The position numbers were made by a program, and so were the translations under genes. The notes under the pieces were generated by a model. That model did not search any database. It was not told where the DNA came from and worked only from the letters and a program-made list of their open reading frames with translations. Shown in pieces: positions 27,243-31,036 of a stretch of 40,041 nucleotides of DNA. Source of the stretch: a virus (taxonomy: Duplodnaviria; Heunggongvirae; Uroviricota; Caudoviricetes). Location: IMG/VR virus record IMGVR_UViG_2778261296_000006. One strand, written 5' to 3'. The first letter of the stretch is position 1; every line of letters starts with the position of its first letter.

Positions 27243-27491
27243 TCAGACCGTTGATTTCATATTATCAGAAGGTGGGGTTACCCGGTAGCCGAGACGGTGA
27301 ATAAACTGCATAAAACCATTAGGAGTAAAGACCTCTTCATCATCCAGCAAAGGCCGCATAGAAACCATGCCATTGACGCGATAAATTAGATGCCTGCCCG
27401 ATGAAGGAAAGCTAAACACCACGCAGCCGTCAGACCTTCTTACAATGTCATACCAGTTGTCTTCTGACGTTTGCAAAGCTGAATCACTCAC
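27243..27491 (-). CDS. hypothetical protein downstream of dinI
   Basis: 82-codon ORF with a GTG start at 27491 preceded by GGGAG. No family recognised. Confidence 0.3.
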   Translation of the reverse strand: MSDSALQTSEDNWYDIVRRSDGCVVFSFPSSGRHLIYRVNGMVSMRPLLDDEEVFTPNGFMQFIHRLGYRVTPPSDNMKSTV

Positions 27492-27608
27492 ATTTATGTT
27501 CTCCCTTCGAGCGACTAACAGACGCGATTAAAGATTGTCGGCAGCAGCATCAGAGGGTTACGCAAATTGCGGTATTCTGAAAAATGCGCGCCAGCCTTAA
27601 GCGCAATT

Positions 27609-27842
27609 CTAATAAAACCAGTCGTCAGCGCTTTCCCAGGTATCCTGGAGGATTGATTCAATTTTCTTTTTATCGTCCTTGTCACCACCAAAAACACTTA
27701 ACCCATCGGCCCCGGCACGGCGGATTGTGAGCCTGCAATTGTCATAGTGATCATTCAGGCGCTTAAGCAGTTCTTTCTCCAGTGCTGGTACTGCGCCTTT
27801 AGGAAGTTCTTTCATGCGATCAATGGTTAATTCAACTTTCAT
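27609..27842 (-). CDS. dinI: DinI-family DNA damage-inducible protein
   Basis: MKVELTIDRMKELPKGAVPALEKELLKRLNDHYDNCRLTIRRAGADGLSVFGGDKDDKKKIESILQDTWESADDWFY aligns end to end with E. coli DinI as I recall it (...ILQETWESADDWF). Confidence 0.8.
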   Translation of the reverse strand: MKVELTIDRMKELPKGAVPALEKELLKRLNDHYDNCRLTIRRAGADGLSVFGGDKDDKKKIESILQDTWESADDWFY

Positions 27843-27860
27843 AATGGCCCCCATTGCATT

Positions 27861-27880
27861 TACTGTGTTTTTATACAGTA
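27861..27880. promoter_or_regulatory. LexA (SOS) box overlapping the dinI promoter
   Basis: TACTGTGTTTTTATACAGTA is a perfect CTGT-N8-ACAG palindrome with TACTGT/ACAGTA arms, about 20 nt upstream of the dinI start. A -10-like TATACT overlaps the box on the minus strand. Confidence 0.65.
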
Positions 27881-27942
27881 TACCTATGCGCGGAAATGAT
27901 CAACGCTTTAAGAGCACAAATTGTTAATTTTCTGTCAGTAGT

Positions 27943-27970
27943 AAAAAAAGAAAACCCGCCGTAGCGGGTT
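27943..27970 (-). terminator. rho-independent terminator (minus strand)
   Basis: AACCCGC-CGTA-GCGGGTT hairpin followed on the minus strand by TTTTCTTTTTTT. Confidence 0.5.
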
Positions 27971-27987
27971 GAATTAGCGATGTTTTA

Positions 27988-28060
27988 TTACGCCGCTATT
28001 TGTTTCTGCTGACAAAGCTCCTGTAGGTTAGCCCTAACCAGCGCCTCAGCGAGCTGATGA
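27988..28060 (-). pseudogene. 3' remnant of a DNA methyltransferase gene (copy A, last ~24 codons)
   Basis: The minus-strand frame ends ...NHQLAEALVRANLQELCQQKQIAA-stop. The DNA is about 80-85% identical to the 3' end of remnant B (28577-28650). Confidence 0.4.
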
Positions 28061-28239
28061 TTGGACAGCATTAACGCAATGGGTAATAGAAACCACAGAA
28101 TGCACGAAATGGCGGTGGTATTCGCCATCTGTGACAGGTTGAATATTGCTCGAATTGTATTGTTTGCACTTTAACGTTTCTGTTGTAGTGCCGGATGCAT
28201 GCCACCGTATGTTCAGGACGATGGCATGCATATTATGGA

Positions 28240-28476
28240 TTACGATTTATCCATTCCCAGGGGATTAGGGTGAATTCCACTTACATGCCAGAACGCATGC
28301 TCTCTATTCAACTGATTTCCCTTTGGTATCAGGAAGCCATACGTCCCAGATTTAAAAGTGGCATGAGCGCAGATTAGACTTTCTCCTTCAAAGCTATACT
28401 CAGTCCCTTCAGGGATTAGAGAGTCAGTCTTGATCAGGTGAACAGTTCCGTTGATAGGGATCATGTAATGGTGCAT
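28240..28476 (-). CDS. hypothetical small protein (78 aa) inserted between methyltransferase remnants
   Basis: ATG at 28476 with GAGGAG RBS 8 nt upstream and a TATAAT hexamer further upstream. AT-rich by eye. No family recognised. Confidence 0.4.
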   Translation of the reverse strand: MHHYMIPINGTVHLIKTDSLIPEGTEYSFEGESLICAHATFKSGTYGFLIPKGNQLNREHAFWHVSGIHPNPLGMDKS

Positions 28477-28576
28477 TTTAGGCTCCTCGTGTTGTGAAGA
28501 GCCTAATTATATCAGGTTTGAATCTACGTCATTGAAGTAGCAGGATTTGTTACACCATGTTCTGAAACTCGGACAT

Positions 28577-28758
28577 TAAGCTGCGATCTCTTTCTGCTGA
28601 CAAAGCTCCGGTAAATTAGCCCTCACCAGTGCCTCGGCGAATGGCGGCGGAACTGCGTTGCCACAACGCGCAACCTGCTTGTCCTTCGCGTACTTCTGCC
28701 CCCGATAGTCCTGATCGATGATGTACCACTCCGGGAAGCCCTGCCAGTTTGGCGTTGT
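28577..28758 (-). pseudogene. 3' remnant of a C5-cytosine DNA methyltransferase gene (copy B, ~60 codons, no start)
   Basis: An open frame without a start codon translates to ...NWQGFPEWYIIDQDYRGQKYAKDKQVARCGNAVPPPFAEALVRANLPELCQQKEIAA-stop. QGFP and GNAV are the conserved C-terminal motifs of Dcm-type methyltransferases. Confidence 0.5.
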
Positions 28759-28817
28759 TCAACCCTGGGTTGTTGCGCAGGGCTGCCAGCACCTGCTCAC
28801 GGATTGTTATGTTCATG

Positions 28818-29507
28818 TCACACCATCCCGTTCGACTTGTTGCGGTTGTACTTGGCCAGCAGCAGCTGGATCGGCGTCGGCCCTTGCTCGGCAGCTGGTG
28901 CGGCAATAGCCCGGCGTACCGGCGGCACTGGCTTACCCTCGGTGACGCGCCTTTCCCACATGTCCAGCAGATCGCCTGCCTCGCGTGCCAGTTCACCATG
29001 CGTTAACTGGCGCTCGGTGCTGCGGTGGCGCAATTCTACGCAAATGTGGTACATGACCGGCTGCGACCATGGAAATTGCTCGCTGGAGATGAATTCGAAC
29101 GAGCGGTTACGCCAGTCCCAGTATTCGGCGATCACCTGGTCAACGTTGACGCCCAGCGCGCCGCCGCTCTGCTTGCACCAGGCGACGAACTGGCCCGGCG
29201 ACGGCAGGAATGGGCGCTCCTGGCGGCGGGCAATGCGCATGCCGGCATCGACCTGAGCCATGGTGTGGATCCCGTTCTCCTGAAACGCCAGCAGCCACTG
29301 ACGGCGGAATTCGTTCAGGTCTTCCTGGGTGCGGAAGTTCGCCATGCTGGCCGGGAACGCGGCGCGCAGCTCGTTGAACAGCTTGTTGAATACCTGCGCC
29401 ACCTGCTCGACCGGCGCGCACTCCTGGTACTGCTCTGGCAGGTTATGGGCCATGCGGCTCATCTGCTCGCGGTCGTGGTTACGCATCTGCTCTGCAAGAG
29501 ATTTCAT
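28818..29507 (-). CDS. P: replication protein P (DnaB helicase loader, lambda P-like)
   Basis: Near-colinear similarity to lambda P as I recall it (...FDREQM.R.A.N.PEQY......VAQ......FPAS.AN.......RRQW.LAF.ENGI.TM.QV.AGMR.ARRQ.RPFLPSPGQFVAWC...). ATGA overlap with the O stop. Confidence 0.85.
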   Translation of the reverse strand: MKSLAEQMRNHDREQMSRMAHNLPEQYQECAPVEQVAQVFNKLFNELRAAFPASMANFRTQEDLNEFRRQWLLAFQENGIHTMAQVDAGMRIARRQERPFLPSPGQFVAWCKQSGGALGVNVDQVIAEYWDWRNRSFEFISSEQFPWSQPVMYHICVELRHRSTERQLTHGELAREAGDLLDMWERRVTEGKPVPPVRRAIAAPAAEQGPTPIQLLLAKYNRNKSNGMV

Positions 29508-30496: not shown

Positions 30497-31036
30497 TCAT
30501 ATAGCCCCCAGCATAATCTGCACCATTTCCATCAACGGACCGGTTAACCCAGGGTCAACGCGATACATCTCCACGATCCCCTCGCTCAACTCTTTCAGCT
30601 TCTGATGACGTGGCGCATCCATTGCGACAGCAATCTTCGCTTCGCTGGTTTCCTTCTCCAGCCTTGCCAGACGAGCCATTACGTTGTCTTCTGGTAGCAG
30701 ACGATTGCGGTATTCAATCGGCAGGACAGCGAGGATTGCCGGCGTCAGCTGGCGGACGTTCTCGCGGTACCGTTCGCTGTTGAAATGGTTATCCAGGAAG
30801 CGGAACAGCTTCTGCCGGGCACGGCTGTGATCTGCCGGAAAGTCGATACCTTCGCCACCTATCCGGTGCCACTCTTCAACGATCAGGGCCGTTACAACGT
30901 CCTGCCCGGCTACTGCTGACCAGGCGCGAACAGCATCACGGAGGGCACCACAACTGACGCCCGGTTTTGGTTGAGCGCGATTTATCAGCGCTGCTGAAAT
31001 GAACCCGTTACTCTGTTGATACGTAAGTGATTGCAT
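30497..31036 (-). CDS. YdaT / CII-like regulatory protein (putative)
   Basis: 179-aa ORF immediately downstream of the cro-like gene and upstream of O, i.e. the cII/ydaT position of lambdoid and Rac-like prophages. Confidence 0.4.
   Translation of the reverse strand: MQSLTYQQSNGFISAALINRAQPKPGVSCGALRDAVRAWSAVAGQDVVTALIVEEWHRIGGEGIDFPADHSRARQKLFRFLDNHFNSERYRENVRQLTPAILAVLPIEYRNRLLPEDNVMARLARLEKETSEAKIAVAMDAPRHQKLKELSEGIVEMYRVDPGLTGPLMEMVQIMLGAI

Follow-up and report, generated by a model that had tools for sequence, protein, structure and literature searches.

We suggest that the region between the replication gene P and dinI in a 40,041-nt stretch of Caudoviricetes DNA (IMG/VR record IMGVR_UViG_2778261296_000006, hereafter the window) is very probably a layered record of recombination, laid down in the steps 0 to 4 set out below, and not a working methylase locus. 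Here the 3' ends of two C5-cytosine methyltransferase (MTase) genes, similar but not identical and called copy 1 and copy 2, bracket a small open reading frame (ORF) of 78 codons, orf78. Positions are given in the numbering of the whole window, and the genes of interest are all on the minus strand, in the order O (30445-29504), P (29507-28818), the remnant region, dinI (27854-27609), an 82-aa ORF and ninB (27208-26609). By its sequence the window is a phi80/mEp237-like lambdoid prophage of E. coli, and the remnant region lies in its early-right accessory region between P and ninB. Over 27600-29000 its sequence recurs at 100% identity in many complete E. coli chromosomes and at 99.8% in Enterobacteria phage mEp237 (NC_019704 / JQ182730), and 33544-40041 matches the int-xis-recT-recE-kil segment of mEp237 at 96%; recT and recE are encoded in the window. 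A scan of IMG/VR yields 29 loci with relatives of orf78. Loci extracted for comparison carry L-numbers (L001 is mEp237 and L042 is E. coli AR_0118); fourteen probes were mapped on all of them, and the ORF ending at copy 1 was extracted from each.

Comparison of the sequence with itself for repeats reveals one direct-repeat family. It consists of 66 nt (28575-28640 and 27987-28052) at 83% identity with a spacing of 588 bp, and blastn between the copies gives E-values of 2e-12 and 1e-10. The repeat is not of low complexity, so the similarity cannot be put down to low-complexity sequence. A first-pass annotation of this DNA had described two homeologous MTase 3' remnants on either side of the small ORF, which the 83% repeat and the family matches given below bear out. 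It had also reported a repetition of about the last 24 codons: the repeat is real and the coordinates given for it were right to within 1-2 nt, but it covers 21 codons and the stop.

Copy 1 (28576-28744) comprises the last 55 codons and the stop of the resident MTase and carries motifs IX-X only (QGFPEWY...GNAVPPP). The frame in which it lies, 28758-28576, is open and has no start codon; it reads ...TTPNWQGFPEWYIIDQDYRGQKYAKDKQVARCGNAVPPPFAEALVRANLPELCQQKEIAA and ends ...QGFPEWYIIDQDYRGQKYAKDKQVARCGNAVPPPFAEALVRANLPELCQQKEIAA before the stop TAA at 28578-28576. Copy 1 aligns with profile positions 286-320 of 324 of PF00145, that is, with the last 35, at E 0.0033, a match that by itself is under the curated cut-off. 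It also matches the phage methyltransferase families PHROG 23072 (E 8e-23) and PHROG 116 (E 2e-14). The C-terminal motifs IX-X of C5-cytosine methyltransferases (QxFP..., GNAVPP) are retained as QGFPEWY...CGNAVPPP, and with the 3' ends of the intact 652-aa genes of L025 and L041 copy 1 shares 99-100% identity. Motif I (FxGxG), which binds S-adenosylmethionine, motif IV with the catalytic cysteine and motif VI (ENV) are absent from the window, where about 600 MTase codons are gone; this excludes that an intact MTase could be recovered by corrections of 1-2 bases. Copy 1 is predicted to be non-functional, and the window, having no catalytic part, should be unable to methylate.

The route by which the methylase was lost can be read from mEp237, which in the region of genes gp43-gp48 shares with the window P and copy 1 and then the whole run from the promoter and orf78 (gp47) over the spacer to copy 2, the terminator and dinI. 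Unlike the window, mEp237 has after P an intact ren (gp44, 114 aa), a 65-aa gene (gp45) and a longer, 134-aa C-terminal MTase fragment (gp46), after which the shared run from promoter to dinI begins. Apart from 718 bp that it lacks, the window is 99.8% identical to mEp237 over 27600-29000. Both copies of a 9-bp direct repeat, GCAGGGCTT, are present in mEp237 (L001 2757-2765 and 3475-3483), with 709 bp between them and 718 bp from start to start, and the window keeps the sole remaining copy at the deletion junction (28736-28744). The deletion took ren codons 28-114, the whole 65-aa gene and 79 further MTase codons.

What remains of ren is a 5' remnant of 81 nt (codons 1-27; 28736-28816), 100% identical to ren[1-81], with its ATG at 28816 immediately after the P stop. 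This ren N-terminus just past P had gone unrecognised in the first-pass annotation. In mEp237 the intact gene encodes a Ren-like winged helix (PHROG 142, E 2e-28; Pfam HTH_24 over residues 5-49). The complete winged-helix domain (residues ~5-49 of 114) is not kept in the window, where ren codons 1-27 are followed by 39 out-of-frame codons. Joined to the out-of-frame MTase tail, these 27 codons make a 66-aa fusion ORF (28616-28816), the in-frame core of a 127-aa ORF (28616-28999). The latter starts out of frame within P, runs through the ren start codon (28816) and crosses the deletion junction into the wrong-frame MTase tail, so it is the chimeric read-through that it had been taken for. By its composition the 66-aa fusion appears to be junk. 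In the PGAP/RefSeq record of E. coli AR_0118, which is 100% identical here, it is called a hypothetical protein (WP_001299077.1), and both MTase remnants are left without pseudogene marks.

The 134-aa fragment of mEp237 is bounded by a junction as well. Mapped against E. coli KL53 (ead lineage) and IMG/VR locus L025 (intact MTase), its 5' border falls at GGC[G/C]GGTGGGCTG, where an ead/Ea22-like gene, at its start, and the MTase, at codon ~540, share a 12/13-bp microhomology. Set side by side, the two junctions show copy 1 as the apparent product of two nested microhomology deletions, both wholly upstream of orf78. Among 5,426 complete E. coli genomes, 32 contain the orf78 segment: the window-type deletion is present in 31 of them, and CUWW10 alone shows the mEp237 form. 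The window-type deletion is also found in 13 IMG/VR contigs. Four of the same 5,426 genomes carry a near-full-length MTase, and at least two (AR_0119 and WEM25) carry a hybrid in which orf78 is missing.

In other relatives the methylase is still intact. An open MTase frame of 652 aa stands in L025 and L041, where it matches the mEp237 fragment at 100% identity and is followed by the promoter, orf78, spacer, copy 2, terminator and dinI; L027 and L028 have the same arrangement at ~90% identity. L034 has orf78, the spacer and a copy 2' after its intact MTase, and beyond them a 60-aa gene and theta. In L037, L038, L040 and E. coli H5 the gene after the intact MTase is a 41%-identical 78-aa homologue of orf78 (orf78M), then comes theta, and there is no second copy. 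The intact MTase ORFs comprise 650-760 codons with the motifs FAGGGG, ENV, QGF and GNAV and stand directly upstream of orf78 or its homologue in L025, L041, L027, L028, L034, L037, L038 and L040; the genes that precede the same layout from promoter to dinI encode 650-660 aa. The full undeleted region is preserved in E. coli H5, in the order O, P, ren, the 65-aa gene, ead, HNH, DUF4014, two hypothetical genes, MTase (662 aa), the orf78 homologue, theta and ninB. Because intact MTase, orf78 and copy 2 coexist in relatives, orf78 and copy 2 would predate the methylase loss, and orf78 appears to be the usual downstream neighbour of this MTase. The first-pass annotation had placed the insertion of orf78 with or after the loss of the methylase; this does not hold, since in L025, L041, L027 and L028 an intact MTase precedes the same layout of orf78 and copy 2.

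In the L025 protein FAGGGG is found at residue 34 and ENV at residue 141. SPDC is seen at about residue 100 by reading, and a scripted search for the canonical PC[QP] gave no match. We also observe that the intact MTase (L025 943-2901) is, at 652-715 aa, about twice the usual size, that its motifs VI (ENV) and IX (QGF) are some 450 residues apart, and that SPDC stands where the PCQ catalytic motif is usual.

Copy 2 (27988-28053) comprises the last 21 codons and the stop of a different MTase allele. It reads LAEALVRANLQELCQQKQIAA before its stop and holds just the tail beyond motif X. The two copies differ at 12 nt, and 9 of these differences are synonymous (proportion of synonymous differences, pS, 0.61; of nonsynonymous differences, pN, 0.06; binomial p 2e-4). 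Since 9 of the 12 are synonymous, the copies would be two alleles that diverged as parts of working genes. The sequence of copy 2 forms the MTase end in other contexts, in MSB1_9D (98%) and in KL53. Copy 2 is separated from orf78 by a spacer (28053-28239), which travels with orf78 and whose similarity to MTase is at chance level. The junction of spacer and copy 2 is the same in all orf78 lineages and so probably arose once. Copy 2 appears to be an older scar than the methylase loss. A longer copy 2, reaching up to motif X (GNAV), was rejected: 13 of 19 bases agree by eye, but Smith-Waterman alignment with three MTase 3' ends scores no better than 300 shuffles.

The relic of the gene end seems to be a recurrent crossover patch. 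In AR_0119 the sequence runs through P, ren codons 1-27 and copy 1 as in the window; after GGAGCTTTGTCAGCAGAAA it switches to copy 2 and goes on into the terminator and dinI, and orf78 is gone. The left block of AR_0119 is 99.4% identical to 30501-28575 of the window and the right block 94% identical to 28052-26053, and the overlap of the two is exactly the 66-nt repeat. Three pairs of prophages have an identical left context and a different right module, with the switch inside the relic near GCTGGT: the window (dinI) and L009 (60-aa gene and theta), ECCWS199 (dinI) and 2018-10-1CC (theta), and KL53 (dinI) and MSB1_9D (orf78M and theta). In Salmonella phage SEN34 a relic of ~63 nt with the terminator, the LexA box and dinI stands behind yet another left context. 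Crossovers are thus met inside the relic in four comparisons (AR_0119 and the three pairs), by the alignments, in line with the earlier idea that a conserved gene end acts here as a recombination joint. Red-type phage recombinases efficiently recombine DNA diverged by 22%, and 'shoulders' are described at the borders of lambdoid mosaics (PMC2327257). By analogy, the joint at the relic would agree with homeologous recombination at such borders.

We propose the following history of the region. In step 0 an ancestor would have carried a large C5-cytosine MTase gene, its terminator and an SOS-regulated dinI, as Klebsiella phage 5 LV-2017 still does. In step 1 a segment of MTase(A), promoter, orf78 and spacer would have been joined to MTase(B), terminator and dinI at a point 66 nt ahead of the B stop. 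The structure of this join is seen in living relatives; its mechanism was presumably illegitimate. Copy 2 would be left by it as a scar before the terminator, and the relatives with an intact MTase keep exactly that layout. Step 2, shown by the state of mEp237 and CUWW10, is a deletion of ~3.3 kb from the 5' end of the ead/Ea22-like gene to MTase codon ~540 at the 12/13-bp microhomology. Step 3, shown by the state of the window, is the 718-bp deletion between the 9-bp repeats, which joined the first 27 codons of ren, in the wrong frame, to the MTase tail. In step 4, seen in relatives, a crossover between copy 1 and copy-2-type sequence in the identical 19-mer GGAGCTTTGTCAGCAGAAA removes orf78, as in AR_0119. 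The relic would serve in such exchanges as a passive homology patch, and phages with an MTase 3' end at this place would exchange what lies downstream, be it dinI, the 60-aa gene with theta, or orf78M with theta. The phage's own RecET-type recombinase probably helps in the exchange. Successive illegitimate and homeologous recombination, which had been proposed from the window alone, is borne out by the relatives.

Several points weigh against this history. The directions of its steps rest on parsimony and not on a rooted phylogeny. Because AR_0119 matches the window at only 94% in its right block, step 4 may be an exchange between two phages rather than an intramolecular deletion. Alternatively to the join of step 1, a second MTase gene in tandem may have lost most of its length by deletion. 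In E. coli no intact MTase with the exact copy 2 allele beside dinI was found, and over copy 2 the closest intact example, that of Klebsiella phage 5 LV-2017, reaches only 76% identity. A single random join does not fully account for the relic of near-equal length in Salmonella phage SEN34, with its other left context. Finally, a scan for two hexamers (-35/-10) finds no promoter pair in the region upstream of orf78, so the orf78 promoter is a putative one.

Other explanations of the bracketed gene have been weighed against the same relatives. One linked process in which the methylase was deleted and replaced by a new small gene, as first envisaged, would account for the window, where the remnants do bracket the small gene. 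It is very improbable in view of the coexistence of intact MTase, orf78 and copy 2 in L025, L041, L027 and L028; members of the orf78 family also regularly adjoin intact MTase genes downstream, and the deletions that destroyed the MTase lie wholly upstream of orf78. An AT-rich cassette with a putative promoter of its own, flanked by a direct repeat, might also point to a transposition-like or site-specific insertion of orf78 that duplicated 66 bp of target, after which the copies drifted in place. Known target-site duplications are far shorter than 66 bp. The excess of synonymous differences (9 of 12, p 2e-4) argues for divergence in working genes and not after one copy turned non-coding, copy 2 sequence is the MTase end in unrelated left contexts, and the ORF list and the repeat search give no transposase, integrase or terminal inverted repeat for the cassette; we hold an insertion of this kind to be extremely improbable. 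That the methylase is really intact or frameshifted, and its remains an artefact of sequencing or assembly, is hardly credible at all: nothing but the two open frames lacking starts speaks for it, 31 complete E. coli genomes from independent assemblies and 13 IMG/VR contigs show this junction again, 99.9-100% identical, and some 600 codons, those for motifs I, IV and VI among them, are missing altogether.

Copy 2 together with the terminator might, instead of being a neutral scar, be kept by selection, for instance to form an RNA element at the 3' end, to regulate dinI or to serve as a dedicated site of recombination. In at least four left contexts, one of them in a Salmonella phage, the terminator and dinI are preceded by a relic of ~63-99 nt, and the distance between two of the truncation points is no more than ~5 nt. 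Selection on copy 2 nevertheless seems quite unlikely to us. Its conservation is not above that of its flanks (80-82% against 87% for the spacer, L009/L031), an in-frame TGA lies inside copy 2 of L031, L032 and L034, and in L009, L031 and L034 the relic stands apart from dinI. The differences between copy 1 and copy 2 fit coding constraint and not RNA structure, and an Rfam scan of 27500-29000 returns a chance-level match only (best E 0.33, far under the gathering score). A bolder proposal, which we regard as unlikely, would make the last ~66 nt of the methylase gene with the conserved post-stop sequence the preferred exchange point, a de facto cassette boundary, for enterobacterial lambdoid prophages that swap orf78, orf78M, theta and dinI, and would make orf78, always directly after the MTase 3' end, a new factor of new fold that is directed at the host or linked to the methylase. 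The layered record of recombination is the reading that we prefer.

orf78 (28240-28476) is probably a genuine small protein-coding gene, of a tiny ORFan family. The ORF, its ribosome-binding site (RBS) and a TATAAT in an AT-rich segment had been noted from the start and are present: the RBS GAGGAG lies 6 nt ahead of the ATG, and the TATAAT is part of an extended -10 promoter-like element, TGATATAAT (28514-28506). Both stand in the intergenic region 28477-28575, which is 87-100% conserved over all orf78 and orf78M lineages and, in the orf78M lineage, is better conserved than the coding region. About 50 nt ahead of the -10 element are nearly invariant between lineages, above the coding sequence. 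The conservation of this upstream stretch is consistent with a promoter or an operator, and the annotation of mEp237 places a promoter here. The homologues of orf78 are 75-78 aa long and align ungapped at 39-41% identity; against the 78-aa homologue of MSB1_9D (41%) pS is 0.86 (saturated) and pN 0.39. Between the window and L009 the ratio of nonsynonymous to synonymous rates (dN/dS) is 0.59, with just 13 changes, too few to be useful.

The orf78 family makes up two clusters by a word-indexed search and about four true clusters by a full HMMER scan of 1.84 billion representatives. A scan of GTDB species representatives finds no relative. The protein matches PHROG 30079 (unknown function) and has no match in Pfam, NCBIfam or PADLOC. 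Its AlphaFold2 model is a confident small fold of five strands and one helix at a mean predicted local distance difference test (pLDDT) of 80.5, and Foldseek against BFVD returns nothing at E<=0.001. Right after the orf78 stop lies a hairpin (28195-28231) with a near-perfect 14-bp stem (ATGCATGCCACCGT / ACGATGGCATGCAT), a 9-nt loop and no U tract. It folds well (z -3.7), and in L009 its stem is weakened with no compensatory changes. The first intrinsic terminator past orf78 is that at 27970-27943, beyond copy 2.

Lambdoid phages carry morons, in the concept of Hendrix and Juhala. orf78 is like them in its own promoter-like element, its deviant G+C (43% in the segment 28053-28575, where the window as a whole has 52% and P has 63%) and its presence or absence among near-identical prophages; AR_0119, whose left block agrees at 99.4%, lacks it. 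It differs from them in that its hairpin has no T run and the first intrinsic terminator comes only after copy 2. On these features orf78 would be an independent moron-like gene with a putative extended -10 promoter. As side observations, the AR_0118 RefSeq record leaves orf78 unannotated, and the other identical E. coli records listed have no feature over it. A database protein of 142 aa (P0003) fuses the N-terminal 83 residues of a CII-like/YdaT-type protein (...RENVRQLTPA; the family of window ORF 30497-31036) to orf78 residues 19-78, which implies, from its composition, a prophage variant or a misassembly with O, P and the remnants deleted.

The right-hand module joined to copy 2 begins with the intrinsic terminator at 27943-27970 on the minus strand (AACCCGCTACGGCGGGTT and a T run), found by terminator prediction. 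In Klebsiella phage 5 LV-2017 this hairpin comes straight after the stop of the intact MTase, with dinI next, and it would be the natural terminator of the MTase gene. A perfect LexA (SOS) box, TACTGTATAAAAACACAGTA (27861-27880), in which CTGT-N8-ACAG is read from the sequence, lies upstream of dinI (27609-27854; Pfam PF06183, E 4e-26). The box is kept in all dinI-linked relatives, including Salmonella phage SEN34, and the prophage dinI is probably SOS-regulated. The alternative right modules (L008 4428-4685, L043 7553-7810, L009 4747-5172) encode a homologue of DNA polymerase III theta (HolE-like), and dinI and theta appear to be interchangeable accessory genes at the same prophage position. 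Shortly upstream of the MTase relic and on the other strand, ECCWS199 (L006 3350-3441) and 2018-10-1CC (L046 2854-2945) carry an annotated tRNA-Ile gene of 92 nt, a length unusual for a tRNA. Between dinI and ninB, the 82-aa ORF (27243-27491, minus strand) matches PHROG 340 (unknown function) at E 4e-20 and is hypothetical in all relatives.

A literature search on mEp237 found no paper on this locus. Copies 1 and 2 are 3' ends of the family of large phage-borne orphan C5-cytosine methyltransferases (PF00145; PHROG 116/23072), such as those of Klebsiella phage 5 LV-2017 (ARB15725) and E. coli H5 (WP_073464677). These enzymes occupy the same genomic position as the remnants of the window, between the replication genes and dinI/ninB; the window differs from them in lacking the catalytic part (motifs I, IV and VI). 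With the lambdoid mosaic joints and 'shoulders' described by Martinsohn, Radman & Petit (2008, PMC2327257) the relic shares short diverged homology (83% here) at the border of exchanged modules, crossovers within short identical runs and a phage-encoded single-strand-annealing recombinase (RecT/RecE here). Unlike in the shoulders, here a dead gene fragment is duplicated in one genome, so it would also mediate the loss of the gene between its copies. The locus is a well-resolved instance of known phage mosaicism, not a new system or element.

For annotation the locus holds a lesson, as in the RefSeq record of AR_0118 a junk fusion ORF is called and a small gene that is probably real is missed. 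For the biology of these phages, a four-step series can be read in living relatives, from an intact gene through two nested microhomology deletions to the loss of a neighbour via relics of 83% identity. A prophage of the window type cannot confer the C5-methylation that its intact relatives presumably give, and its dead gene end repeatedly serves as a crossover point for swaps of downstream modules. While adding no new principle, the locus supports that illegitimate and homeologous recombination both build phage mosaics.

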